Assembly: GCA_964512635.1 (NCBI GenBank)
Contig: CAZEJB010000006.1
Coordinates: forward strand, 1,500 to 65,499
Reading direction: 5' to 3'
From: an uncultured Planctomycetales bacterium
GTDB taxonomy: Bacteria; 4484-113; JAFGCY01
Length of the DNA stretch: 64,000 bases
Under the pieces are notes generated by a model, which was not told the origin of the DNA, did not search any database, and saw nothing but the letters and a program-made list of their open reading frames with translations. This document shows positions 9,391-40,638 of this stretch, one piece after another. The translations under genes and the position numbers were made by a program. How positions within the stretch are numbered: position 1 is the first letter of the stretch; each line of letters opens with the position of its first letter.

Positions 9391-10692
9391 GTGCACAAAC
9401 AGGACACCGCCACGCTGAACCAGCACGCTCTGGCCGAGCGCCTGCGTGAGCTGCAGCTTAAGCAGTGGTGGGTTGCCAGGCAGATAGGTGTTACGCCCCT
9501 GACGGTCAACCGCTGGCTGACCGGCAAGGTCCGGCGTATCGGGCGCGACAATCTTGTGCGGCTGGCCGAGATACTCAAGTGCGACGAAGGGCTGCTGGTG
9601 ATCAGCGATGAGGCGGACCTGCTGGCGACCCAGGTTGAGCAGACCGAAGCCGCGCACCTGCTGACCAGCCGTGAAAGCCAGAGCCTGTTTATCGCCAGCA
9701 AGAAATATGACGTTTACGAGCAGCTGCTTAAGGCCGTCATGCACCCTAACATGAAGGCCCAGCAGCTGGCGGAGATTTATGCCCGGCTGAGTACCGCCGC
9801 GGCCGGCCAGGGAAAGCTGGAGCAGCTGCGCAGCTATGCGCGGGCCGGTCTTGAGTATGCAGTCCGAGCCGGCGATACAGATACTGAATTCCTGATCCGC
9901 AACAACCTGATTGCCTGCGAGGGCCAAAGCGGCAACCTGGCCAAGAGCATCAGCGGGCTGCGCGATCTGGCCAGCGCCGCCGAAAGCGTTGGCAACACCC
10001 GGGCCCGGGTGATCGCTTTGATGAACCTGCTGTATGCCCTGAGACTGAGCGGACGTCTTGCCGAGGCGGTACGCTTCGCCAATGAAGTCATTGCCTACCT
10101 TAACCATAGTGAGGAGCCGCGCCTGCAGGGCAACTCGCTGAGCAACTGCTCGCTGCTGGCGCTGGACCTTGGCCGCTATGACCTGGCCGCCAAGCTGCGG
10201 ATGGAGGCAGAGCGACGCGGCGGGACCGTTGCCGATACAACCCGTGATGCGATTGCGATGAGCTTTACACTGCTGTGCCGCAGTCTTGACGGCAGCCCGG
10301 TCGACCTTGAGCTTCTGCGCAGCAAGCTGCCCACCATCATGGCTCAGCCGCTGAGCGATGGCTTTGGCACCTGGTCGGTGACGATCCTGCGCCGGGCCGG
10401 GCAGCTTGACGAAGCCGCGGAACTGCTTGAGCGGGTGGCAGGGCGTGAACCGCGGCCGGCCTACGACGAGCCCTTCGTGCTTGAAGAGCGCGCGCGCCTC
10501 GAGCTGGCGCGCGGCAGGGTTGATGCGGCCCGAAAAGTGCGCGGACAGGCGAACGAGGCTCTGCGCCGGCTGGGCATGCAGGGGCGCGTCTGCGAGGATC
10601 CCGGCGCCGAGCCCGGGCAGCAGATAAAGCCGCCGGCCCGGCTGAAACTCAGCGAACCCTGGAACGACAGCTCAAGTATCTGGCGCTTGTGA
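9391..10692 (+). CDS. XRE-HTH + TPR-like regulator (paralog 2)
   Basis: GTG start, in frame with track ORF 9355. VHKQDTATLNQHALAERLRELQLKQWWVARQIGVTPLTVNRWLTGKVRRIGRDNLVRLAEILKC followed by a helical repeat domain. Conserved C-terminal …LGMQGR..EDPGAE…. Confidence 0.75.
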   Translation: MHKQDTATLNQHALAERLRELQLKQWWVARQIGVTPLTVNRWLTGKVRRIGRDNLVRLAEILKCDEGLLVISDEADLLATQVEQTEAAHLLTSRESQSLFIASKKYDVYEQLLKAVMHPNMKAQQLAEIYARLSTAAAGQGKLEQLRSYARAGLEYAVRAGDTDTEFLIRNNLIACEGQSGNLAKSISGLRDLASAAESVGNTRARVIALMNLLYALRLSGRLAEAVRFANEVIAYLNHSEEPRLQGNSLSNCSLLALDLGRYDLAAKLRMEAERRGGTVADTTRDAIAMSFTLLCRSLDGSPVDLELLRSKLPTIMAQPLSDGFGTWSVTILRRAGQLDEAAELLERVAGREPRPAYDEPFVLEERARLELARGRVDAARKVRGQANEALRRLGMQGRVCEDPGAEPGQQIKPPARLKLSEPWNDSSSIWRL

Positions 10693-10693
10693 C

Positions 10694-10699
10694 TATACT
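10694..10699 (+). promoter_or_regulatory. TATACT box 6 nt upstream of the GTG start of paralog 3
   Basis: gacTATACTctgccgGTG. Confidence 0.4.
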
Positions 10700-10705
10700 C
10701 TGCCG

Positions 10706-12046
10706 GTGCCGAAGATCGACACTGTTTCCATCAATCCACACGCCCTCGCCGAGCAGCTGCGCAGCCAGCAGCTCAAGCAGTGGTGGGTCGCGCGGCAGAT
10801 CGGCGTGACTCCGCTGACCGTAAACCGCTGGCTGACCGGCAAAGTGCGGCGCATCAGCCCGGAGAATCTAAAACGCCTCAGCGGCCTTCTGGGCTGTGAA
10901 CCGGGGGCGCTGAGCCTGCACGATGAAAGCGAGGCGCGGGCGACCCAGGTTGAGCAAAGCAGGGCATCCAGGCTGCTGGTTTCCAACGAAAGCCAGGACA
11001 TGTTTCTGCAGGCCGGCCATCTGGAGACCTATGAGCGTCTGATCAAGGCCGTTATGCACCCCAACCTGTCGCTGAGCGACCTGCTTGAAATCTATACGCT
11101 GTTGACAATGGTGGCGGGCCTGCGTGGCGACTTTGAGCGCAGCCTCAGCTATGCCCGGCTGAAGCTGGACTATGCCCTGCGCTGCGGCGACGCCGAAAAG
11201 GAGCTGGAGGCGCGGATCAACCTGGCAACAGCCCAGGGAGCGCTGGGCAACCTGATCGCTTCGCACCGCGGGCTGCTGGAGCTGTTCAGCGCGGCGGAAA
11301 GCCAGGGCGCCCAGCGCAGCATGGTGGTGGCGCTGATCAACCTGACGGCGACCTTTCACCTGCTGGGGGATGTCGGTGCTTCGCTGCGCTCCGCGATCCG
11401 TGGGCTGGAGCTGCTGCAGACGGTCAGTTCCGAGCAAGGCTCCGAGCCTGATGAGCACTGGCGGATCCAGGCCAGTTCGTATATCTACTTTGCGGCGACC
11501 AGCGTAGCGCTGGAGAGCGGCGAGTTCGACCTGGTACGGCTGCTGATTCAGGCCCAGGCCCGGGCCAGCGAGATGATGCTGACCCCGATCGAGCGGGAGA
11601 CGCTGGAGCAGGCCGACATGCTTTGCACCAGCCTGCAGGGCGGAGAGGTTGACCCGGCAGCCTTGGACAGGCAGGTCAGCAGCACGCGCGAGTTCGACCA
11701 GTTCGCCATCGGTGGCTCGATTTATCCCGCGGTGCTGCTGCGGCGCAGCGGCCGTGCGCCGGAGGCGCAGGCATTTCTTGACTCGATCCAGGACAAGCCC
11801 TGTTGCCAGCGCTATGAGTCGGCCTACATTGCTGAAGAGCGGGCCAGGATTAATGCCGCCGGAGGAAAGGCCGAAACGGCGCTGGATCTGCGCGAACAGG
11901 CGAATCAGATTCTGCAGAGTCTGGGCATGCTGCGGCGGATTCAGCCGGATCCGGCTCTGGAGTTCGGCTCGCAGTTCCGGATGCCCGCGCGGCTGAGAAC
12001 CCAGCTCCAGACGCTTGCGCGAGCCGAAATCGAGCGGCAAGGCTGA
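10706..12046 (+). CDS. XRE-HTH + TPR-like regulator (paralog 3)
   Basis: 446 aa. MPKIDTVSINPHALAEQLRSQQLKQWWVARQIGVTPLTVNRWLTGKVRRIS…. Confidence 0.8.
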   Translation: MPKIDTVSINPHALAEQLRSQQLKQWWVARQIGVTPLTVNRWLTGKVRRISPENLKRLSGLLGCEPGALSLHDESEARATQVEQSRASRLLVSNESQDMFLQAGHLETYERLIKAVMHPNLSLSDLLEIYTLLTMVAGLRGDFERSLSYARLKLDYALRCGDAEKELEARINLATAQGALGNLIASHRGLLELFSAAESQGAQRSMVVALINLTATFHLLGDVGASLRSAIRGLELLQTVSSEQGSEPDEHWRIQASSYIYFAATSVALESGEFDLVRLLIQAQARASEMMLTPIERETLEQADMLCTSLQGGEVDPAALDRQVSSTREFDQFAIGGSIYPAVLLRRSGRAPEAQAFLDSIQDKPCCQRYESAYIAEERARINAAGGKAETALDLREQANQILQSLGMLRRIQPDPALEFGSQFRMPARLRTQLQTLARAEIERQG

Positions 12047-31105: not shown

Positions 31106-32794
31106 CTAAATCACCCCGCTCACCTTAGCCCCATTCTGCTTGGCATAGGTGATCGCCTCCTCGTAGCCCGCGTCGGCGTGGCGCATTACGCCCGTCCCCG
31201 GGTCGGTCGTCAGCACGCGGTGCAGCTTCTTGGCCTGCGCGTCCGTGCCGTCGGCCACCACCACCATCCCCGCGTGCAGCGAATAACCCATCCCCACCCC
31301 GCCGCCGTGGTGCACCGAGACCCAGCTGGCGCCGCTGGCCGTGTTGACCAGCGCGTTTAAGATCGGCCAGTCGGCAATCGCGTCGGAGCCGTCGAGCATG
31401 CCCTCGGTCTCGCGGTTGGGGCTGGCGACCGATCCTGCGTCGAGATGGTCGCGGCCGATCACGATCGGCGCCTTGACCTTGCCGTCGCGCACCAGGTTGT
31501 TGAACAGGATGCCGGCCAGGTCACGCTCGGCATAGCCCAGCCAGCAGATGCGGCTGGGCAGGCCCTGGAACTTGACCTTCTGCGCCGCCTTATCGAGCCA
31601 GCGGATCAGGCCTTCCTTTTCAGGGAAGAGATCCTTCAGCGCGGCGTCCGTCACCGCGATGTCCTGCGGGTCGCCACTCAGCGCGACCCAGCGGAAGGGC
31701 CCGGTGCCGGTGCAGAAGAGCGGGCGGATGTACTCCGGCACGAAGCCGGGGTACTCGAAGGCGTTGCTGAAGCCATGGGCCAGGGCCTGGCCGCGCAGGT
31801 TGTTGCCATAGTCGAAGGCCACGCTGCCCGCGCGCTGCAGGTCGACGATCGCCTGGCAGTGGATCACCATGCTGTCGAGGCTGCGCTTGATGTAGTCCTT
31901 AGGGTCGCGCTCACGCAATTCGTCGGCCTCTTCCTTGCTCAGTCCGGCGGGGTAGTAGCCGTTTAGCTCATCGTGCGCCGAGGTCTGGTCGGTCACGATA
32001 TCGATCTTCACCCCGCGCTTGACGATCTCCGGCAGCAGCTCAGCGGCATTGCCGAGCAGGCCGACCGACAACGGCTCGCGCTGAGCGCAGGCCTTCTCGC
32101 AGAGGCCCAGCGCCTCATCAAGGCTGGAGCTGTAGGTGTCGAGGTAGCCGGTGTCATAGCGGCGGCGGATGCGGTACTCGTCGATCTCGATGCACAGCGC
32201 AACGCCGTCGTTCATCGTGACGGCCAGGGGCTGGGCGCCGCCCATGCCGCCGAGGCCGGCGGTGAGGGTCAGTGTGCCGGCGAGGCTGCCGCCGAAGTGC
32301 TTGCGGGCGACCTCGGCCAGGGTCTCATAGGTGCCCTGCAGGATGCCCTGGGAACCGATGTAGATCCAGGACCCGGCGGTCATCTGGCCGTACATCGTCA
32401 GGCCCATGCGCTCGTACTCGCGGAAGTGCTCCCAGTCGGCCCACTTCGGCACCAGCAGGGAGTTGGCAAGCAGCACGCGCGGCGCCCACTCATGCGTCTG
32501 GAAGACGCCGACGGGCTTGCCGGACTGCACCAGCAGGGTCTCATCGTCGCGCAGGTCCTTGAGCAGGGCGAGAATCTTGTCGAAGCATTCCCAGTTGCGG
32601 GCGGCCTTGCCGGTGCCGCCATAGACGATCAGCTCGCTGGGCTTCTCGGCCACCTCAGGGCTGACGTTGTGCTGCAGCATGCGGTAGGCGGCTTCCTGGA
32701 CCCAGCCGCGGCAGTGCAGGCGCGGCCCGGTGGGCGGATGCACGATGCGCGGGGCGTGTTCTTCGGTGGCGGGATCGTCGTGGCGGAAAGACAT
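31106..32794 (-). CDS. hutU: urocanate hydratase
   Basis: 562 aa, full-length urocanase signature (…[17 protein letters not shown]…[25 protein letters not shown]…). Confidence 0.95.
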
Positions 32795-32816
32795 GCAGGC
32801 ATTTTAGCGGGCGCGG

Positions 32817-33209
32817 CTAACGCGGTGTGATGTTGAGCGTGATCAACCCGCCCTGGACCAGTGCTTTGTAGGAGAAAACCATCAGATAGCGCTTGTTGCG
32901 GCTTTCATAGGCAATCCCCTTGTCGGCAATGGGGTTGGCGTCGCTGACCTGTGAAAGTTTGTGCATGCCATTGCTGCGCGAGAGCGTGGCCAGATAGCGC
33001 ACGAAGCCTGCTTCATCGGTGGGAACCGTGCCCGTGTAGAACCAGTAATTGGGCATTTCGACGCCCTTCTGATACTCCGAACCCGGAGGCAGGTAAAGGT
33101 CCTCCACCGGGCAGTCGGCAACCAGCACCGAACCTGGCGGCGGGCCGGAGGTGCAGCCGCTCAGCAGCAAAATCCAGACGAAGAACAAAGTGATTCCAGC
33201 GTTGCGCAT
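32817..33209 (-). CDS. lipoprotein, hypothetical
   Basis: MRNAGITLFFVWILLLSGCTSG lipobox. 130 aa. Confidence 0.6.
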   Translation of the reverse strand: MRNAGITLFFVWILLLSGCTSGPPPGSVLVADCPVEDLYLPPGSEYQKGVEMPNYWFYTGTVPTDEAGFVRYLATLSRSNGMHKLSQVSDANPIADKGIAYESRNKRYLMVFSYKALVQGGLITLNITPR

Positions 33210-33241
33210 CTGCTGATTCTAGCCCTTGCGCCGCAGACGGG

Positions 33242-34561
33242 CTACTGAGCAGTCGGATCCTCGACCCGGCCCATGAAGAGGATGGCACCGCTCGCCTTGT
33301 CGCGGATCAGGAAGAGGAAGGGATGATCGGCGATGAAAGTTATGGGGTTCATCGCCGCTCCCGTGGGGCGCATAACGATGCCGCTGGCGGCGGCGGCTTC
33401 CGTGCCTTCCTCGTTGACCTCAACAAAGGCCTGATGGACAGCTGCGCCGATCTTGAGGTCCTTGCCGCCGGTCATGCCGCTGAAGTCCGCGTCATCGCTG
33501 AAAGCGGTCGGCATGCCAAGGGCGGCCAGCGTTTCGTTCAGCTCAAACTTGCTCTTGAAGGTGAAACGCGGGATCTGGACGATGACGTTCTTGCTGGCGA
33601 GTCCGGCGTCCACCCGGGAAATCAGCTCCGCGCCGAGCGCCGCGTCCAGCGCGGCAAGGTCATCAGCCTTGGGCAGTAGCATCAGCATGGCCAGGCGATC
33701 GCCCTCGTAAGGCAGTTCCAGCGCCTTGAGCATTTCGTCTTCAAAATAGCGATAGTCCTTGTCTTCGCCGGCAGGGATCATGAAACGGGCGTTGACCGCT
33801 CCCGCGGGGCGCCGGAAGCTCTGGTCAAAGGTGCGCTCGGGGTCGAACTGCCGTGCCCAGCGGCCCTTGAAGAAGATCGCGTTGGCCAGCACCAGGCGGG
33901 TATCGGGACGGATCACGCCTTCCTGGAACAGGTCCTTGATGCGGTCGTTGGTGCGCTGGGCCACCCACTTGTTGATCATCTCGCGGGAATCCTCAGCGTG
34001 GTTCTGGAAGTCCATAGTGGCGGCCTCGCTGGCATAGCGGTCTTTCAGCACCGCGACGTATTCCGGCAGCAGCGCGAAGTCCTGCTGGGACCAGATGCCG
34101 TTGGCCACCGCAAGCTGATAGGGCGCCTTCTGCGGGTTCAAGCTGTTGTGCAGCGCGGCCACCGCCGGCTGGCGCTGCGTCCCGGAGGCAGGGAACTTGA
34201 TGACGCTCTGAATCTCATCGGCGGTGCTTCCCGCTGCGCCTTCATAAACCATGGAAATCGCTGTGGCCAGGCTGTAGGGCGAAAAGAACAGGTTGCCGGG
34301 TTCGGCCTTGACTTCCCTGTACAGGCGCAGTCCGAACTGATTGATGCCGCCAGCGACTTCCTTCAGCGCCTCTGCAGTTGACCCCTTGTCGTCGGCCATG
34401 GCAACCCCCTTGCTCTTGGTTTTCTCCTGGCCATGCTCTTTGCTGGCCGCCTTTTCCTTGTCCGATGGCCGCCCGGCCTGAACCTGCTTGAGGCAGCCGG
34501 TAGCCAGCAGCAGTGCTGTGGCCGCAACCGCGATAAACAGATAGAGCGAACGGCTTGGCAT
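33242..34561 (-). CDS. serpin-family protease inhibitor, secreted/lipoprotein
   Basis: AGGAGG Shine-Dalgarno sequence plus ATG at 34561. Signal peptide LLLATGC. Serpin body and hinge/reactive-loop region …EVNEEGTEAAAASGIVMRPTGAAMNPITFIADHPFLFLIRD…. Confidence 0.85.
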   Translation of the reverse strand: MPSRSLYLFIAVAATALLLATGCLKQVQAGRPSDKEKAASKEHGQEKTKSKGVAMADDKGSTAEALKEVAGGINQFGLRLYREVKAEPGNLFFSPYSLATAISMVYEGAAGSTADEIQSVIKFPASGTQRQPAVAALHNSLNPQKAPYQLAVANGIWSQQDFALLPEYVAVLKDRYASEAATMDFQNHAEDSREMINKWVAQRTNDRIKDLFQEGVIRPDTRLVLANAIFFKGRWARQFDPERTFDQSFRRPAGAVNARFMIPAGEDKDYRYFEDEMLKALELPYEGDRLAMLMLLPKADDLAALDAALGAELISRVDAGLASKNVIVQIPRFTFKSKFELNETLAALGMPTAFSDDADFSGMTGGKDLKIGAAVHQAFVEVNEEGTEAAAASGIVMRPTGAAMNPITFIADHPFLFLIRDKASGAILFMGRVEDPTAQ

Positions 34562-34683
34562 GGGGGCCTCCTGCGCCTTAACCCGGCAGCGCGCCAATTA
34601 TGACTGTCGGCCGCTTGTGCTGGTTCAATCAGACCTGCCGCCGCGGGAAGGAGACCAATGAGACAGCCCTGATCAGTGAGATG

Positions 34684-35013
34684 CTACTTTGCCGGCAGGC
34701 TGGCGGCGAAGCCGAGGGCGCGCTGCACCCAGGCCTGCAGCTCGGCATCAGTCTCCACACCCGCAGCGTCGACAAAAAGCATGCTCTTGAGCACCTTGCC
34801 GGTGAAGTCCATCGGGCGGGTGTGCGGCTCTTCGAGCGCAGCGGCGGTAAGCTCATTGCCCAGGCGCAGCATCAGTTCATCGCCGGCCACTCCGCAGGCC
34901 ATATTGCCGTTAACCATGAAGCAGACGCCGCCAAACATGCGCCTTTCGCTGACGCCGGGCTGGTCGGCGAGCAGAACGCGGATGCGCTCAACGAGCAGTT
35001 CATCGCAGGCCAT
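34684..35013 (-). CDS. TfoX N-terminal domain protein
   Basis: 109 aa. …RRMFGGVCFMVNGNMACGVAGDELMLRLG… The start ATG overlaps the stop of the upstream small gene (TGATG). Confidence 0.65.
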   Translation of the reverse strand: MACDELLVERIRVLLADQPGVSERRMFGGVCFMVNGNMACGVAGDELMLRLGNELTAAALEEPHTRPMDFTGKVLKSMLFVDAAGVETDAELQAWVQRALGFAASLPAK

Positions 35014-35189
35014 CAGACGTCCCCGCCTTCACCTTCGCTGTGGGGAGAGTCGCCAGGGCCGAAAACATCGTCGTCATGAGTGAACTCGTCACCGTCGAGG
35101 CCGCCCACGCAGCAGCAGGAGGCCAGCAGCGCGATGACTAACACCGCGCAAAGCAGCAGGATATGGCAAAGCCGTGTGAAAGATCGCAT
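35013..35189 (-). CDS. tiny acidic lipopeptide, paralog A (58 aa), not in the ORF track
   Basis: MRSFTRLCHILLLCAVLVIALLASCCCVGGLDGDEFTHDDDVFGPGDSPHSEGEGGDV. Lipobox LASC. Confidence 0.5.
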   Translation of the reverse strand: MRSFTRLCHILLLCAVLVIALLASCCCVGGLDGDEFTHDDDVFGPGDSPHSEGEGGDV

Positions 35190-35305
35190 GCCAGGATACT
35201 AAGCCACCGCCTGCACAAAGACAAGCCCGGTGGGCTGGCGCTCGGCCCTGTTCCGATTGTGGGACTTAACTTAACCCGAGGGAATCTGGATGCATCAAGG
35301 ACAGA

Positions 35306-35449
35306 CTAAGCGTCGCCGCCGGTGCCTTCGTTGTGCGGGATCGGGTTGAAGTCGTCGTCATCGCCTGAGCTGTCGCCGCAGCAGCCGCCCAGGCAGAAGA
35401 TGAGGCCGATCAGGGCCAGAGCCGTGGTGAGATAACGCCATGTGTTCAT
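35306..35449 (-). CDS. tiny acidic lipopeptide, paralog B (47 aa)
   Basis: GGAGG plus ATG. MNTWRYLTTALALIGLIFCLGGCCGDSSGDDDDFNPIPHNEGTGGDA. Confidence 0.55.
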   Translation of the reverse strand: MNTWRYLTTALALIGLIFCLGGCCGDSSGDDDDFNPIPHNEGTGGDA

Positions 35450-35551
35450 TTCAGTCCTCCCGGAAGTTATATCGCGCCAGGAGCAAGCCTAAACAGGACT
35501 GAACCATTAATTAACTATCTTGTGCGGCAGCTGCCAGAGGCCCAACCACGA

Positions 35552-35695
35552 CTACACGTCGCCGGCATTGCCTTCGTTATGCGGGTCCGGGTTGATGTTG
35601 TCATCATCGAAGATGCCCGAGAGACAGCAGCTGCCAAGCAGGCTGAGGCCAAGCAGCAGGAGCATCAGCGTTAAGTGGGTACGTAGAGTGTGCAT
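35552..35695 (-). CDS. tiny acidic lipopeptide, paralog C (47 aa)
   Basis: GGAGG plus ATG. MHTLRTHLTLMLLLLGLSLLGSCCLSGIFDDDNINPDPHNEGNAGDV. Confidence 0.55.
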   Translation of the reverse strand: MHTLRTHLTLMLLLLGLSLLGSCCLSGIFDDDNINPDPHNEGNAGDV

Positions 35696-35750
35696 TAAAT
35701 ACCTCCGCTCACTCAGACCCGCCTGAGAGCAGAAAGGTTGGCGAAAGCCT

Positions 35751-35784
35751 CAAAGAAAGCAAAAGGGGCAGCCGTGGCTGCCCC
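35751..35784 (-). terminator. rho-independent terminator after lipopeptide D
   Basis: Perfect 8-bp stem GGGGCAGC/GCTGCCCC (35765-35772/35777-35784), followed on the minus strand by TTTTGCTTTCTTT. Confidence 0.55.
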
Positions 35785-35811
35785 AGTGTCGTTCTGACTG
35801 ATGTCGAGAGA

Positions 35812-35961
35812 CTAGGCGTCGCCGCCGGTACCCTCGTTGTGCGGAAGCGGATTGAAGTCGTCGTCGTCATCATCCGTTCCGCCAAGGCAGCAGCAGCTGG
35901 CCAGAGAAACCAGCAACATCGCCGCTACCAGACCTTTCACAAGCCACGCGAGCTTACTCAT
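35812..35961 (-). CDS. tiny acidic lipopeptide, paralog D (49 aa)
   Basis: GGAGGG plus ATG. MSKLAWLVKGLVAAMLLVSLASCCCLGGTDDDDDDFNPLPHNEGTGGDA. Differs from paralog B mostly at synonymous sites in the C-terminal motif. Confidence 0.55.
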   Translation of the reverse strand: MSKLAWLVKGLVAAMLLVSLASCCCLGGTDDDDDDFNPLPHNEGTGGDA

Positions 35962-36000
35962 ACTCAACCCTCCAAAAAACCTGGTCCATCGAGAGAAACG

Positions 36001-36036
36001 AACTAATGAACCAGAGGGCAGTTTCCCACCCTCTGG
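36001..36036 (-). terminator. hairpin plus T-rich tract after lipopeptide E
   Basis: 8-bp stem CCAGAGGG/CCCTCTGG (36011-36018/36029-36036), followed on the minus strand by TTCATTAGTT. Confidence 0.4.
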
Positions 36037-36068
36037 TTCATTACATTCTTGTGTTAACCAGCGCAGGG

Positions 36069-36227
36069 TTAGGCGTCGCCGCCCACGCCCTCATTGTGCT
36101 GACCCGGACCGAAAATATCGGTGTCGCTCGGGTCATCATCAGTGCCGCCGGTGCAGCAGCAGCTCGCCAGCGCCAGCAAAAGAACTGACACGGCGATGCC
36201 CTTGAGGATGCTGTCCAAGACCTTCAT
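36069..36227 (-). CDS. tiny acidic lipopeptide, paralog E (52 aa)
   Basis: GGAGG plus ATG. MKVLDSILKGIAVSVLLLALASCCCTGGTDDDPSDTDIFGPGQHNEGVGGDA. Confidence 0.55.
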   Translation of the reverse strand: MKVLDSILKGIAVSVLLLALASCCCTGGTDDDPSDTDIFGPGQHNEGVGGDA

Positions 36228-36862
36228 ACGTCCTCCACGATGGAAAGCTGAGGGTGATTATAGAACAGGATATAGCGATTTGAGAAGTGCAAGACGTCCA
36301 AAATCGGCAGGCCTTCCCCCGTCCTGTTCCCACACCGGCAAGCCGGTATGGTTCGCGCATTATAGCGCAGCGCGTGGTCATTGGTGATGAACTTGGGATA
36401 AATCGACCTATGCTCCCCGCGCAGGGCTATTTTCGGCCTGCTGCGGCCCGGCTTGAGCCCCCGTCTCAGCGGCACAGAAATATCAGCCTGTGGCTGGCTT
36501 TTGTCAGCGCAGGCGGATTCGCGCGTTGGGAAAATCTCAATTCCTGAGGAAAGTCAGTTCTGGTCAGTCAAATGTGACGAATGAAACTATGGGCTGGATG
36601 CCATGCCGAATTGTCGCTGCCGGACAACAGGGGCTTGCCTGGACAACCACAGTTACTTCCGGTGTCCTATGAGGTCGTCTGGAAGCCACGGCAAGCCATT
36701 GAGCATCCTTGAAAGCTCAGGCCTGTTGACAATAGAGGGAACACACGGTCAAACCACTACCTGAAAGCTGCTGAGAGCCATGTAGCGGGCTTGAAGGCAT
36801 TTGTGGTTCAATGCGCCCCGCACAAGAGTCCGGCACGAGATTCCGGGGCCGGCTTCAGGCAT

Positions 36863-38179
36863 TTACCACTCAGTGGAAGCAGCCTTGTCCAGACGGTCGC
36901 GGGCCTCGTCAAACATCCCGGAACCCTTGGTGCCGACTTCCTCGCTGGCAGCGGCCTGAAGATAGATCTGGATGTTGTAGACATGGATCCGCTGGCCGTT
37001 GACCCAGTCGAACTCGTCGCCATAAACCGGGCGGTACTGGCAGCGCGGTAACAGCTGCTCAATCGCCTGGCTGATGATCGAGTCCGGGTTGACCTTGCCA
37101 TCCCGCAGGTCCTTGATGCTGGGCTGCTTAATCAGCGCCTGCAGGCGGCTGGTCAGATAGGCGTCGTAGTTGCCGTTGCGGTCGCGGACGCTGACGCTGA
37201 CCGGCAGCCAGGCGCCGGCGGCGGGCACCAGCGCCTCTGTTGGCGTGCCCTGTCCGCGCCCAATGCCAAGCGAGGTCAGATAGGCCCGGGTGCCGTCACG
37301 CAGACCGGCCTGCTCAGACTCGGTCAGCTCTTTGTAAGGCTGCATCTTGATGGCCAGATCGCTGGGCCAGGCTGGAACGGTGAAGCTGAACTCTTCGTCT
37401 TCCAGGGCCTGCTGGGCTTCAACCGGCGAGACGAAGCGGCTGTCAAGCACCTGGATTTCGCGGGCCGTTGTGCTGAGCGCACCGCTGAGCCCATACGCGA
37501 TCTGGTCGGCGTGACGAGCAGCGATCTGCGCGGGGCTGTTATCCGGCTGTTGCCCGACATAGGCCTCGCCCTGCGGGCGCAGGCGAGAGACCAGCATCCC
37601 CACCGGACTGACCCGGCGGGTGGTCTCGACCAGGGCGGACTGGGAGAACATCGGCTCCAGGCCACCACGGCCGTGGACGATCACCAGTTGACGCAGGCGC
37701 TCTTCCAGCTTGCTGCGGCTGGTGTCAAAGGCTGTAGCGTTAATACGCAGGTGTCCTGAGCCACCTTCCGGCGCCTGCAGGTCAGTCGCACCGACCGGGC
37801 TGAAACTGGCGCTGAGGATGGTTCCACGCGGCTCGTTCTTCAGCAGCTCGGAATAAAGCTCAGAAGCCTCGCGGCGGCTGAGGTCCTTTTCGAAGCCCAT
37901 CTGCAGGGCCAGAATTGAGCTGCGCATGGGCAGCCAGGGGGCAAGCAGCAGGGCCAGCACCAGGACTGCGGCAGCAGCGCCGCCGACGGCCTTGCCGCCC
38001 GGCTTGCTGCGCGGCAGCGGGCCCATGGTCTGGGCCTTGAACAGAATGCTCTTTACGGAGGGCGCGCCCGCGGCGAAGGCCGCGAAGTCAAGGTCCTTGC
38101 GCGCGTTGCCCAGCGGGTCAGGCCCGCTGTACAGATCCTCCTCGTGCACGTCTTTCAGATCTTTTCCCAGCAGCATCAT
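36863..38179 (-). CDS. membrane protein co-transcribed with the ECF sigma factor (putative anti-sigma factor)
   Basis: 438 aa. Its start overlaps the stop of the ECF sigma gene (ATGA). N-terminal cytoplasmic segment, one transmembrane helix (AVGGAAAAVLVLALLLAPWL), and a large periplasmic domain. Confidence 0.6.
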   Translation of the reverse strand: MMLLGKDLKDVHEEDLYSGPDPLGNARKDLDFAAFAAGAPSVKSILFKAQTMGPLPRSKPGGKAVGGAAAAVLVLALLLAPWLPMRSSILALQMGFEKDLSRREASELYSELLKNEPRGTILSASFSPVGATDLQAPEGGSGHLRINATAFDTSRSKLEERLRQLVIVHGRGGLEPMFSQSALVETTRRVSPVGMLVSRLRPQGEAYVGQQPDNSPAQIAARHADQIAYGLSGALSTTAREIQVLDSRFVSPVEAQQALEDEEFSFTVPAWPSDLAIKMQPYKELTESEQAGLRDGTRAYLTSLGIGRGQGTPTEALVPAAGAWLPVSVSVRDRNGNYDAYLTSRLQALIKQPSIKDLRDGKVNPDSIISQAIEQLLPRCQYRPVYGDEFDWVNGQRIHVYNIQIYLQAAASEEVGTKGSGMFDEARDRLDKAASTEW

Positions 38180-38736
38180 TGCTGCACCTCAAAATCCGGG
38201 CCAAGAATCTCAAGCAGCTTCTTGCGGGCCCGGTGAACTCGAACCTTCACCGCGCCAGCGGTGAGGCCCATGATTTGAGCAACTTCTTCAAGTGAATAGC
38301 CTTCCAGCGCCGTCAGAGCCAGGGGCAGGCGCAGCTGCTCCGGCAGGCTGTCGAGGGCGCGGAAAACCTGGCGGCTCTCCAGCTTGCGGCCGGGGTTGCC
38401 GTGCATCGGATAACGCTCGAGGCGCTCCCAGAGCACGCCGTCCCCTCCATAATCGGCCACATCAAGCTGACGCTTGCGTCCGCGGCAATGGTCGATATGC
38501 AGGTTGCGCATCAGGCGCATGAACCACCAGTGGAAGCGCGTGGGGTCTTTGAGCTTGTCGTAGGCCTTGATGGCACGGGCGACACTTTCGGCCAGCAGAT
38601 CCTCGGCGTCCTCGCGGCGGCCGCAAAGATAAAGCGCCAGACGCCAGGCCTGCTGGTGCACTTCTTCATAGTGCGCCACGAAGGCCTCGTTGCGGGCGGC
38701 CACCGAATCACTGCGTGTTAGCGCCAAGGCGATCAC
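38176..38736 (-). CDS. ECF-family RNA polymerase sigma factor (sigma-70 regions 2 and 4)
   Basis: …AFVAHYEEVHQQAWRLALYLCGRREDAEDLLAESVARAIKAYDKL… and …LPEQLRLPLALTALEGYSLEEVAQIMGLTAGAVKVRVHRARKKL. Confidence 0.85.
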   Translation of the reverse strand: MIALALTRSDSVAARNEAFVAHYEEVHQQAWRLALYLCGRREDAEDLLAESVARAIKAYDKLKDPTRFHWWFMRLMRNLHIDHCRGRKRQLDVADYGGDGVLWERLERYPMHGNPGRKLESRQVFRALDSLPEQLRLPLALTALEGYSLEEVAQIMGLTAGAVKVRVHRARKKLLEILGPDFEVQQ

Positions 38737-38812
38737 ATTCTACCCAGACGCCATGACCGCGGGACGGTTACATATATGTATGGCGAATACGCGAGAAATT
38801 TTGACTATTGCG

Positions 38813-39736
38813 CTAGTCTGGGTCGCAGCAGCGTGCAATGATCCGCTCAACTTCCGCCGGCATGGCCCCGCCCTGCTCTGTCAGGCTGCCATAGAGCTCC
38901 GACGCCCGTCGAGCGGCTTTGCAGGCGCGGGGGCGATCCCCCATGACTTCATAAGCCAGAGCCTCGTTAAAGGCCAGATCCGGATCTGCAGCCTGGCCGA
39001 GTTTAAGCCTGGTATTCTCGGCTTCGCGATAGGCTTCGAGCGCTTCTTCGAGACGACCGGCCTCCTTGAGCAGCACCCCGCGATTCATCGGCAGATCGGG
39101 GTCAGGCGGCAAACCGGCAGCAGCCCGCAGCTCGGCCGCGCGGGTCAACTTTTGCAGAGCTTCGTCGCGGCGTCCAAGTGCAATCAACACCGCGCCGCGA
39201 TTCTTGATGAGAGAAAAGCCAGGCTCATCGCCCTGCGAGATGGTCTGGGCCTCGGATTCGTCATAGAAGCGAATGGCGGTGTCATAGTTGCCCATCCGAA
39301 CATGGCAGTTACCGGCATTCATGGTCAGCCCCGGGTCGGGCAACAGCCCCTGGCTCAGCCGCTCCTCCTGGCCCTGGCGGTAACTCTCCAGCGCCTCACG
39401 GTGCAGCTCCAGGGAGGCCAGAATATTGCCGCGATTCTTGAATATCTCAGGGTCGGGCAGCAGGCCCTGTTCCCTGCGCATGGATTCAGCTTCAGTCAGC
39501 GCCAGCAGCGCTTCATCAAGCTCCCCAAGCTGGGCCAGCGCCAGGGCGCGCAGCCGCTGCAGCTCAGGATCCGCCGGCAGGCCATCTTTCAGAAGCTTTT
39601 CCTGCCGGGCGTCGATCTCCTCCAGAGAGGGAATGTCATCGCCAATGATGTTCATGCGCTGGCGAGTATAGCGTCTCAGGAGCGCAGAGGGCCGCAGACG
39701 CGCCCACTGCCGCGGTAACATGGCCCGAGCAGCCAC
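38813..39736 (-). CDS. tetratricopeptide-repeat protein
   Basis: Repeated …ALxxYRxAExxRxxxGLxPDPDLxxNRGxxL… TPR units. 307 aa. Confidence 0.75.
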   Translation of the reverse strand: MAARAMLPRQWARLRPSALLRRYTRQRMNIIGDDIPSLEEIDARQEKLLKDGLPADPELQRLRALALAQLGELDEALLALTEAESMRREQGLLPDPEIFKNRGNILASLELHREALESYRQGQEERLSQGLLPDPGLTMNAGNCHVRMGNYDTAIRFYDESEAQTISQGDEPGFSLIKNRGAVLIALGRRDEALQKLTRAAELRAAAGLPPDPDLPMNRGVLLKEAGRLEEALEAYREAENTRLKLGQAADPDLAFNEALAYEVMGDRPRACKAARRASELYGSLTEQGGAMPAEVERIIARCCDPD

Positions 39737-39777
39737 GGGCTAGATTAGATTCAGTCTCAGTCTGGTAGTAGGTAGGG

Positions 39778-40638
39778 ATGAGTTTACTGACCCCCATTGC
39801 CAAAAGCCCGCTGCTCTGGATGGTCCTGGTCGCAGGCGCCGCCGTCTTTGTCTGGTCGGCAGCGGCTCGCACCAACCATGAAGCGGCTGAAGCCGCCGCC
39901 AAGGAGGATTCCGTGCTTTTTTCCTGCCCTGCTGCCCCAAAAGATGCACAGCTCGCAGCGACTCTGCCTGCTACGGCGCCGATCGATGCCGCGCAGCCGG
40001 AGCACTTTGAGACGGCAAGTTTCGCGCTTGGCTGATTCTGGGGCCCTGACTCCCAGTTTGGGGGTCTTGACGGAGTGATCCGTACCCGCGTTGGCTATAT
40101 GGGTGGTGCCAAGCAGCGACCGACCTATCACAGCCTTGGCGACCATACCGAGAGCATTGAGATTGACTTCGACCCCGGCAAGATCAGCTATGAAGAGCTG
40201 GTACGCCAGTTCTTTGCCGCGCACTTTGCCGGGAGGCCGCCGTACAGCCGGCAGTATCGCAGCGCGGTCTTCTATCACAGCGACGCACAGCGCGAAACCG
40301 TGCAGCAGGTGATGGCGGAGCTGGAGCGCAGCAGCGGCAGCCTGTATACAGCGGTGGAGCCAGCGGGGACATTCTGGCTGGCCGAAGACTATCACCAGAA
40401 GTACTACCTGAAGCACGACCGGGTGTTCAGTCGCGAGATCAAAAGGCTGTTTGGCAACGATGAAGAAGCCCTGATCAACAGCACGGCTGCAGCGCGCCTG
40501 AGCGGTCTGGTCGGCGGTTACGCACCGGCGTCGCTGCGCGCCGAGAACATCAGCGATCTTGGCCTGAGCCCGGAAGGCGAAAAGCACGCGCTGGACATGC
40601 TGAGCGGCTCAGTCCGGCCTCAGATTATGTGTAAGTAG
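39778..40638 (+). CDS. msrA: peptide methionine sulfoxide reductase MsrA with signal peptide; in-frame TGA (40033-40035) at the catalytic Cys position: selenocysteine candidate or pseudogene
   Basis: Track ORFs 39778..40035 and 40075..40638 share one frame split only by TGA. Translation reads …FETASFALG-TGA-FWGPDSQFGGLDGVIRTRVGYMGG…, which is the MsrA GCFWG active site with Cys replaced by the TGA codon. Small hairpin 3 nt after the TGA (CTGGGG-ccctgac-TCCCAG). Confidence 0.65.

Follow-up and report, generated by a model that had tools for sequence, protein, structure and literature searches.

Five consecutive mini-genes, termed here c1 to c5, lie on the minus strand of the 64-kb stretch of DNA that was analysed (contig CAZEJB010000006.1; the whole stretch is called the window). 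They had been proposed from the sequence alone to encode tiny acidic lipopeptides that share a conserved C-terminus. Proteins of fewer than 60 aa are regularly overlooked, and roles are known for very few small lipoproteins. When the minus strand of positions 34000-37600 was read and open reading frames (ORFs) of at least 30 aa were listed, the five mini-ORFs were found at the sizes and positions originally given, with products of 47-58 aa:

36069-36227, minus strand: mini-lipoprotein c1 (159 nt, 52 aa, mature part 30 aa; MKVLDSILKGIAVSVLLLALASCCCTGGTDDDPSDTDIFGPGQHNEGVGGDA)
35812-35961, minus strand: mini-lipoprotein c2 (150 nt, 49 aa; MSKLAWLVKGLVAAMLLVSLASCCCLGGTDDDDDDFNPLPHNEGTGGDA)
35552-35695, minus strand: mini-lipoprotein c3, CC variant (144 nt, 47 aa; MHTLRTHLTLMLLLLGLSLLGSCCLSGIFDDDNINPDPHNEGNAGDV)
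35306-35449, minus strand: mini-lipoprotein c4, CC variant (144 nt, 47 aa; MNTWRYLTTALALIGLIFCLGGCCGDSSGDDDDFNPIPHNEGTGGDA)
35013-35189, minus strand: mini-lipoprotein c5 (177 nt, 58 aa; MRSFTRLCHILLLCAVLVIALLASCCCVGGLDGDEFTHDDDVFGPGDSPHSEGEGGDV)

The lipobox contexts also proved correct, and read LASCCC in c1, c2 and c5, LGSCC in c3 and LGGCCG in c4. The products end in HNEGVGGDA (c1), HNEGTGGDA (c2), HNEGNAGDV (c3), HNEGTGGDA (c4) and HSEGEGGDV (c5). A GGAGG-type Shine-Dalgarno (SD) sequence had been ascribed to every copy; it is present 6-9 nt before the ATG in four of the five (c1-c4), and none was found upstream of the ATG of c5. There, a -10-like TAGTAT box (35196-35201, minus strand) ends 6 nt before the ATG, with TTGTCT 17 nt upstream. 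The c5 orthologue in locus L012 of a sister metagenome-assembled genome (MAG), SJ870, has TATACT 6 nt before its ATG and, as in the window, overlaps a following TfoX_N gene by TGATG. The c5/TfoX_N pair may thus be transcribed as a leaderless bicistronic mRNA. On Logan contigs L001 and L002, Prodigal-type callers called four of the five mini-genes, c5 being the one missed.

We are highly confident that the five genes represent an undescribed family of mini-lipoproteins, processed by the Sec/signal peptidase II (SPII) route, which bear a portable C-terminal tail and have housekeeping-type promoters of their own.

A family of mini-lipoproteins with a conserved tail

A profile built from the five window copies was searched against 5.8 billion proteins and matched 18 of them (47-63 aa, E=5e-22 to 3e-8), including P0008 and P0002, which are identical in sequence to c3 and c4 respectively. 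An exhaustive HMMER profile scan of 1.84 billion representative proteins yielded 44 cluster representatives, all of 44-71 aa apart from one of 165 aa. The family is therefore rare, and it is confined to uncultured lineages. Homologues with E values as low as 5e-22 among 5.8 billion proteins lie far beyond chance, and the mini-genes are true protein-coding genes.

The ratio of non-synonymous to synonymous substitution rates (dN/dS, Nei-Gojobori estimates) was 0.07-0.36 across orthologous pairs, for which the window was compared with the sister MAG, and L004, L008, L010 and L011 among themselves. For individual window genes the values were 0.19 (c1, orthologue in L009), 0.07 (c2), 0.35 (c3, orthologue in L012) and 0.24 (c4, orthologue in L012). 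Across paralogues dN/dS was 0.26-0.40, with the window's own copies at about 0.29-0.40. The copies had been described as differing mostly by synonymous changes, which is not the case, as raw non-synonymous differences outnumber synonymous ones among the window paralogues (for example, 34 versus 20 between c1 and c2). The selection at the protein level that had been argued from this description is nonetheless borne out by the ratios, and purifying selection on the mini-genes is real. With dN/dS of 0.07-0.40 and 44 HMMER representatives, these are selected protein-coding genes with lipoprotein signal peptides, as had been proposed, and the likelihood that the array is an artefact is negligible.

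The family definition rests on 62 sequences. A PS51257-style lipobox regular expression, which describes an N-terminal signal with a hydrophobic core followed by [LVI][ASTVI][GAS]-C within about the first 40 residues, matched 58 of the 62 members, and the other four are near-misses. The family thus has the signal peptide and lipobox by which bacterial SPII lipoproteins are recognized in sequence, and its peptides are probably exported and lipidated. Starting from the lipobox Cys there is a run of three Cys residues in 48 of these 58 members, of two in nine and of one in a single member. The mature part has a median length of 28 residues (range 23-34), with a median of seven acidic and no basic residues.

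All but one of the 62 members (61/62) carry the tail motif H-[NSD]-E-G-x-G-G-D-[VAI], which is followed by the stop codon. In these 61 sequences the His and the first Gly are invariant (61/61 each), the position after His is N, S or D, and Glu is present in 55 (Q in five). Later positions are occupied by Gly in 57, Gly in 46 and Asp in 36 members, with G, N, S or A in place of the Asp elsewhere. Of the 61, 52 close with V, A, I or T, and in 56 the His is ninth from the end. An AlphaFold 2 (AF2) model based on a 20-sequence alignment shows a helix for the signal peptide alone (residues 2-25) and coil for the mature part (pLDDT 44-64), and the mature peptide is accordingly modelled as disordered. 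Its layout can be described with little doubt as a Cys that is probably lipidated, usually two more Cys residues, a Gly-Gly hinge, a polyanionic linker predicted to be disordered and a nine-residue tail with a free carboxylate.

The statement that no described family has these features also stands. Pfam and NCBIfam scans of the five peptides returned nothing meaningful, a search of the PDB gave no significant sequence match (the best being LptM/YifL at the lipobox, E about 0.5-0.65), and a literature search on the motif strings produced no real match, the sole match being a DNA primer. We could not find a description of either the Cys triplet starting at the lipidation site or the fixed C-terminal nonapeptide shared with larger lipoproteins. 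The family falls within the small bacterial lipoproteins, where it was previously undescribed, and the functions considered for it below are predictions.

LptM has a mature part of about 45 aa that is largely unstructured, and it works by binding a partner protein. As a small lipoprotein with an unstructured mature part, LptM/YifL of the LptDE translocon (PDB 8h1r_C, 9ia2_C) therefore resembles the peptides described here, but its match (E=0.54-0.65) covers only profile positions 5-29, which correspond to the signal peptide. There is no significant similarity beyond the lipobox, and LptM lacks the Cys run, the acidic linker and the tail motif. The tail also differs from the RTX-type Ca-binding repeat GGxGxDxUx in being single-copy, in its order E-G-x-G-G-D-U and in having no Pfam match. 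The lipoprotein export signal (LES) of Bacteroidota, C-X-K-(D/E)2-X, or SDDDD in B. fragilis, depends critically on position (PMC5080379). It is likewise an acidic run shortly past the lipidated Cys, and a 280-aa sibling lipoprotein considered below begins C-S-G-D-D-D-D. In the mini-lipoproteins, however, the acidic run starts at about +8, after CC-x-GG, and one of the MAGs that carry the family is labelled Planctomycetales.

The portability of the tail, which was not part of the original prediction, emerged from a six-frame scan of all loci for occurrences of the motif. In L004-L006 the same C-terminal motif is carried by a 285-aa lipoprotein encoded directly downstream of the mini-gene. Its L010 counterpart of 280 aa starts ...LSAAGCSGDDDD and ends ...HDGGGGGDI, and in L008 a homologous 269-aa protein (43% identical) is encoded downstream of the mini-gene. 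Overall, the larger tail-bearing lipoproteins span 165-285 aa. The smallest, P0042 (165 aa), has a beta-rich domain flanked by an SCCCTGGLDDD start and an MHNEGGGGSV end, and this domain is homologous to one in the L010 280-aa protein (E=6e-16). The tail accompanies a single-Cys lipobox in L012 688-831, L003 9660-9851, P0053 and the 280-aa lipoproteins; conversely, CCC is present without the tail in L003 10670-10816 and P0056. These arrangements show that the tail is a portable C-terminal module capping lipoproteins of differing size. The mini-proteins come close to an anchor, a linker and a tail with nothing between them.

Some divergent copies were also recorded. L003 carries five dispersed paralogues (9483-11348), the series being interrupted by a HAD hydrolase gene; the copies at 10670-10816 and 11223-11348 are tail-less, and the single-Cys copy at 9660-9851 ends HREGVGGGI. 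In the sister MAG a degenerate-looking sixth copy follows the TfoX_N gene (L012 1216-1350; …LLLLGVAACCRIGGLKDYETVSEDIIGPPKHEMGHGGDV). It has a stop codon just upstream and a signal peptide that is too short, and there is no counterpart in the window.

The adjacent sigma factor gene and the promoters of the mini-genes

An extracytoplasmic function (ECF) sigma factor gene and a gene for a membrane protein, termed here the partner, precede the array on the same strand. The features of this region are as follows:

38747-38772, minus strand: ECF-type promoter TGTAACC-N15-CGTC(T)GGGTA in front of the sigma gene
38176-38736, minus strand: ECF sigma factor gene (TIGR02937 86.4 bits versus a cut-off of 42.9; Sigma70_r2, Sigma70_r4_2 and Sigma70_ECF matched)
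36863-38179, minus strand: gene for the 438-aa single-pass membrane partner, which overlaps the sigma gene by 4 nt
36359-36364, minus strand: distal TATAAT box upstream of c1, TGnTATAAT-like (invariant in seven of seven aligned lineages; also in L015, L017 and L018)
36257-36286, minus strand: proximal sigma70-type promoter TTCTCA-18-TATAAT (10/12 in the promoter scan)
36004-36043, minus strand: intrinsic terminator after c1 (18-bp stem, T-tract; conserved in sister MAG locus L009)
35765-35784, minus strand: intrinsic terminator after c2 (hairpin and T-tract; conserved in L009)

The original prediction placed an ECF sigma/anti-sigma pair immediately upstream of the array in the same orientation. 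The sigma gene and the partner gene do lie upstream in that orientation, but not immediately adjacent, since a 635-nt non-coding gap (36228-36862, minus strand) separates the partner gene from c1. The corresponding gap measures about 300 nt in L009 and some 170 nt in the L004/L008/L010/L011 group; no Rfam match was obtained for the additional 330 nt or so of the window. An Rfam scan of 32000-40000 gave a sole match, a sub-threshold SECIS_2 located elsewhere (32494-32550, plus strand). This match lies antisense inside hutU, scores 28 bits where the gathering score is 70 (E=0.022) and is probably noise.

The sigma protein contains regions 2 and 4, scores above the TIGR02937 cut-off as expected of an ECF sigma factor, and is 73-99% identical across related loci. 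Its ORF-based GTG start is about 10 nt downstream of the -10 element. In other lineages the protein starts at the M of MALTRS, which aligns with a TTG at 38727 in the window; this TTG is probably the true start, leaving a very short leader. Ahead of the sigma gene the lineages have TGTAAC(C/T)-N15-CGTC(T/A)GGGTA in common; its hexamers are conserved and the spacer between them varies. A search for TGTAAC-N16-17-CGTC gave a single hit in the window, where 0.10 would be expected by chance, and exactly one in each of the 10 loci that cover the region upstream of sigma. By its sequence, this element is an ECF promoter of the usual autoregulated type. No ECF promoter was found before the mini-genes in any locus by strict or relaxed pattern searches, and the sites precede sigma alone. 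A look-alike upstream of c1 (GGAAGG-N16-CGTCT) was rejected, as it is shared solely with the very close sister MAG and has a spacer indel.

The first or only mini-gene is instead preceded by sigma70-type elements. The proximal promoter lies about 30 nt before the SD sequence GTGGAGGA (36231-36238, minus strand). Its TATAAT and this SD are invariant in seven aligned lineages, where the -35 element is TTCTCA or TTTTCA, and both are also found in L015, L017 and L018. Promoter scans identified equivalents of the proximal promoter in L010 and L003, and in L003 each of three separated mini-genes is preceded by a sigma70-like promoter. Terminators between some copies had been noted, and hairpins with T-tracts do follow c1 and c2; terminator-like hairpins are also present downstream of mini-genes in L003 and L010, so that they occur in all three lineages scanned. 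Between the partner gene and c1 there is one weak terminator-like site. At least the first or only mini-gene is therefore, as far as its flanking signals indicate, a housekeeping-type unit rather than a visible member of the ECF regulon, and it is probably strongly expressed. A riboswitch or attenuator in the c1 leader was considered and dropped, because RNAalifold found no conserved structure in the leader between the two TATAAT boxes (-2.4 kcal/mol).

The partner has a cytoplasmic N-terminus, which a transmembrane (TM) helix (about residues 65-79) connects to a periplasmic alpha/beta domain of about 350 aa; across the family the periplasmic region has about 330-360 aa. Within this domain (residues about 83-438) W271-P272, E289-Q290, D333, G336, Q347 and Q352-P353 are invariant. 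It evolves fast, with 28-47% identity between loci, and in a family alignment its most conserved stretch is the cytoplasmic N-terminus, DPLxxARxxLDFAAxAxxAPSVKxILFKAQTMGP. Pfam, NCBIfam and PDB searches gave no sequence match for the protein. The N-terminal segment is short (about 50 aa, two helices) and in this may resemble class II anti-sigma domains. The gene overlap, the cytoplasmic N-terminal segment and the single TM helix that follows it form the layout of a membrane anti-sigma factor, and from overlap and topology we infer that the partner acts as one. In all nine aligned partners the last residue is aromatic and the one before it acidic or polar (…TEW, …SDW, …SEW, …ANF, …LSY, …LEY, …VEY), although the tail preceding them is variable; this end could be a recognition signal in its own right.

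Every locus of the HNEG[TV]GG[DN] subfamily, in at least four sublineages, has sigma, partner and mini-gene in this order. These loci are the window with L001 and L002 (the same sequence on two Logan contigs), sister MAG SJ870 (L009, L012), L003, L015 and the group L004-8/L010/L011/L017/L018, L016 being the same contig as L004. The outer flanks vary, with genes for TPR, msrA and an aminotransferase in the window, DnaK-GrpE-DnaJ/TPR in L003 and a ClpB-D2-like AAA+ protein in L008 and L011. The genes after the first mini-gene vary as well: c2-c5, TfoX_N and a serpin in the window, a HAD hydrolase in L003, and a 270-285 aa lipoprotein or hutU elsewhere. A constant gene order within differing outer flanks supports a putative sigma-partner-peptide core in the window's clade. 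Within a few kilobases downstream of this module, hutU, the urocanate hydratase gene, recurs in the window (31106-32794, minus strand), L010 (7278-8957), L011 (6313-7995) and L018 (6346-7986), which points to inherited synteny beyond the three-gene core.

Candidate functions of the mini-lipoproteins

A fixed tail that is shared with larger lipoproteins would imply a dedicated reader or binding function. The mechanism that we tentatively favour, as a possibility that still falls short of being probable, is that of a membrane-tethered ligand whose C-terminal tail is read by a periplasmic protein. The lipid would hold the peptide at the membrane face and the acidic linker would keep it extended, so that the tail could be presented in the style of a PDZ or other tail-binding ligand: its His and Gly are invariant, their spacing from the C-terminus is fixed, and the last residue is small and hydrophobic. 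In the window's clade the reader would most plausibly be the adjacent partner, through its periplasmic domain, or else a protease that acts on the partner. Release of the ECF sigma factor might in this way be modulated by the state of the peptide pool, which could change through trafficking, through proteolysis, or when the two free Cys residues are oxidized or loaded with metal. The invariant His and glycines, the fixed carboxylate distance, the hydrophobic end and the reuse of the tail favour a C-terminal ligand over a chelation site. Constitutive promoters, together with the terminators, agree with an input or accessory function rather than with an output. The position of the family beside an autoregulated ECF sigma/anti-sigma pair makes it a testable candidate for how an uncharacterized sensor domain is fed.

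Several known systems offer parallels to a tethered ligand of this kind. NlpE uses Cys chemistry and reports lipoprotein trafficking. RcsF-IgaA, NlpE-CpxA, CseA (of the Streptomyces sigE operon) and RseB-RseA all involve an accessory protein tied to a membrane stress sensor, but RcsF, NlpE, CseA and RseB are folded proteins of at least 100 aa with unrelated sequences. A further parallel, in concept, is the signalling of outer-membrane protein (OMP) C-termini, Y-x-F, to DegS in the sigmaE pathway, where a C-terminal peptide with a free carboxylate and a hydrophobic end is the signal to an ECF pathway. The motif there is another, however, the ligand is a misfolded porin rather than a dedicated lipopeptide, and no PDZ protein was identified in the conserved neighbourhood here. 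A broader proposal, which we consider doubtful, is that the tail is a portable lipoprotein address tag defining an undescribed tail-reading pathway, with the mini-lipoproteins as tag-only tethered reporters. A new class of single-pass ECF anti-sigma factors would sense, by way of a fast-evolving periplasmic domain, how available these reporters are, as governed by trafficking, thiol state and proteolysis. If true, this pathway would parallel OMP-tail to DegS signalling, but with lipoproteins as the source of the signal.

Four observations weigh against the tethered-ligand mechanism. Searches for partner homologues returned at least four to five proteins, and an AF2 model of moderate quality from a shallow five-sequence alignment shows generic ferredoxin-like units in the periplasmic domain and neither a PDZ-like nor a peptide-binding fold. 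The ECF-linked clade is not deep, with sigma 73-99% and hutU 79% identical, and part of the synteny may simply be inherited. Five of five sampled distant members have no sigma or partner neighbours on the available DNA, most of these contigs being only 0.6-1.2 kb long; given such members, the family would be autonomous, its ECF linkage would be clade-specific and its ancestral function presumably cannot depend on this ECF system. The 73-79% identity of sigma and hutU and the distant members without the module thus temper synteny as proof of functional coupling. Finally, Cys, His, Glu and poly-Asp are just as characteristic of peptides that bind metal.

This last point leads to the main rival explanation, a lipopeptide that binds metal or divalent cations at the membrane surface for buffering, chaperoning or sensing, to which we assign a real but minor share of the likelihood. 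Zn, Cu or Cd would be bound by the two vicinal thiols and His, or Ca or Mg by the carboxylates, Glu, the terminal Asp and the poly-Asp linker, and proximity to the ECF genes would be analogous to the metal-responsive CnrYXH, CorE and SigF/NrsF systems. The composition of the peptides is in keeping with such a role, since 57 of 58 lipobox-positive members have a CC(C) run, His (61/61) and Glu (55/61) are prominent in the tail, and there are seven acidic residues and no basic ones in the median mature part; moreover, a periplasmic Cys is key to metal and oxidant sensing in the ECF16 anti-sigma factor NrsF (PMC3511200). The distribution of the motifs fits it less well. Single-Cys members also bear the tail, and as their sole Cys would be lipidated they would have no free thiol, while CCC occurs without the tail in L003 10670-10816 and P0056, so that there is no one obligatory site. 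Because CCC and the tail are separable, each being found without the other, a single joint metal centre formed by both, which we had considered, is weakened. About a third of members have G, N, S or A instead of the terminal Asp, and five have Q instead of Glu. Neither the invariant glycines nor the small hydrophobic residue at the end would obviously contribute to chelation, and no metal-transport or resistance genes are conserved nearby in the loci examined.

The mini-lipoproteins might alternatively be outputs of the ECF regulon, that is, envelope-stress effectors switched on by the adjacent sigma factor like the Met-rich BcrX/MrpX peptides beside ECF16 sigmas. ECF control was one of the roles originally suggested, and it is unlikely. 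The genes lie constantly downstream of sigma and partner on the same strand, with merely a weak terminator-like site between the partner gene and c1 that could allow read-through, and the -35 element TGTAAC is the ECF16 consensus, in loci of which small exported redox-active peptides are encoded (PMC8315932). The ECF promoter, however, precedes sigma and in no locus a mini-gene, the first or only mini-gene has invariant TATAAT-type promoters (with three sigma70-like promoters in L003), terminators follow mini-genes in the window, L003 and L010, and distant members are not ECF-linked. The resemblance to ECF16 systems is itself partial. SigF/BcrS with NrsF/AbcS and MrpX/BcrX (PMC3511200, PMC8315932) share the TGTAAC -35 element, an autoregulated sigma and a small exported peptide with an oxidizable residue. 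The ECF16 promoter consensus is (T/C)GTAAC-N17-CGAA (PMC8315932), whereas here an identical -35 is combined with a -10 of CGTC and N15-16 spacing. The ECF16 anti-sigma is a six-TM DUF1109 protein, as opposed to a single-pass partner of about 400 aa with no Pfam domain, and MrpX/BcrX are soluble, Met-rich and ECF-driven, as opposed to Cys-bearing lipoproteins with sigma70-type promoters. These differences in -10 element, anti-sigma architecture and type of peptide promoter indicate that this is not an ECF16 system.

There is also a small chance that the family provides an abundant structural lipopeptide of the envelope, acting as a polyanionic tether, spacer or brush whose tail attaches, by covalent or non-covalent bonds, to the cell wall, the S-layer or an outer-membrane protein. 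A near-consensus promoter, an invariant strong SD, terminators in three lineages and the presence of paralogues suggest high expression, as for lpp, and an extended 28-residue chain would span several nanometres. E. coli Lpp (PF04728) is likewise a tiny SPII lipoprotein with its own strongly expressed unit and terminator, and its function hinges on a C-terminal residue, the extreme C-terminus being the critical feature here too. Lpp, however, forms a trimeric helical coiled coil and is cross-linked to peptidoglycan through its C-terminal Lys. The mini-lipoproteins have neither a C-terminal Lys nor other known cross-linking chemistry, and no coiled coil, as Pfam (including PF04728) is negative and AF2 predicts disorder; they are very acidic, carry a Cys run and end in D-[VAI]. 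The family is moreover rare, with its 44 representatives, and single-copy in several lineages. Finally, tandem small Cys-rich paralogues with a hairpin after the first gene resemble the loci of precursor peptides, and the genes could encode the precursor of a modified peptide, like a ribosomally synthesized and post-translationally modified peptide (RiPP), or of a released signalling peptide. We regard this as very unlikely, given that the peptides begin with a canonical SPII signal and lipobox instead of a RiPP leader, that no modifying enzyme, transporter or protease is conserved beside the genes in any lineage, and that the conserved portion is the mature part and not the signal peptide.

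Variable neighbours of the mini-genes

Downstream of the array the window contains the gene whose translational coupling to the last copy had been emphasized:

34684-35013, minus strand: TfoX_N-only gene (109 aa, Pfam PF04993, E=2.6e-20; its start overlaps the c5 stop as TGATG)

TfoX_N spans residues 14-103 of the 109 aa, and a Pfam scan showed that TfoX_C is not present. The product is a stand-alone N-domain protein, unlike the TfoX/Sxy competence regulators, which combine TfoX_N and TfoX_C. The TGATG overlap is genuine but was given too much weight, since it is limited to the window and the sister MAG (L012). The TfoX_N gene is a clade-specific passenger outside the conserved module. It is followed by a gene for a serpin lipoprotein (33242-34597; PF00079, E=5e-110).

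The distant members occur in other settings. P0039 follows an M42 peptidase gene, P0044 lies between M42 peptidase and MoeA genes, and P0047 is a lone copy flanked by a Clp_N gene (divergent) and an S15 peptidase gene (convergent). The gene before P0036 ends ...KWKFEF, and P0031 is a tandem pair with a divergent gene fragment upstream. Genes related to proteolysis thus recur as neighbours, namely M42 aminopeptidase (two independent samples), S15 X-Pro dipeptidyl peptidase, Clp_N/ClpB-D2-like AAA+ proteins and the serpin lipoprotein (L020, the P0039 contig, L021, L008, L011 and window 33242-34597), although coincidence is possible.

The msrA gene, for methionine sulfoxide reductase A (40075-40638, plus strand; PF01625, E=3e-29), is two genes away from that for the ECF sigma factor. 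ECF16 regulons repeatedly include Msr genes (PMC8315932); the pattern search found no ECF promoter before msrA. In sister MAG SJ870 the array is split over two contigs (the 3′ end of L009, and L012). Positions 1-120 of L012 encode the C-terminal end of an ISL3-family transposase (PF01610, E=7.6e-9), and an insertion sequence (IS) element appears to lie between c2 and c3 in this genome.

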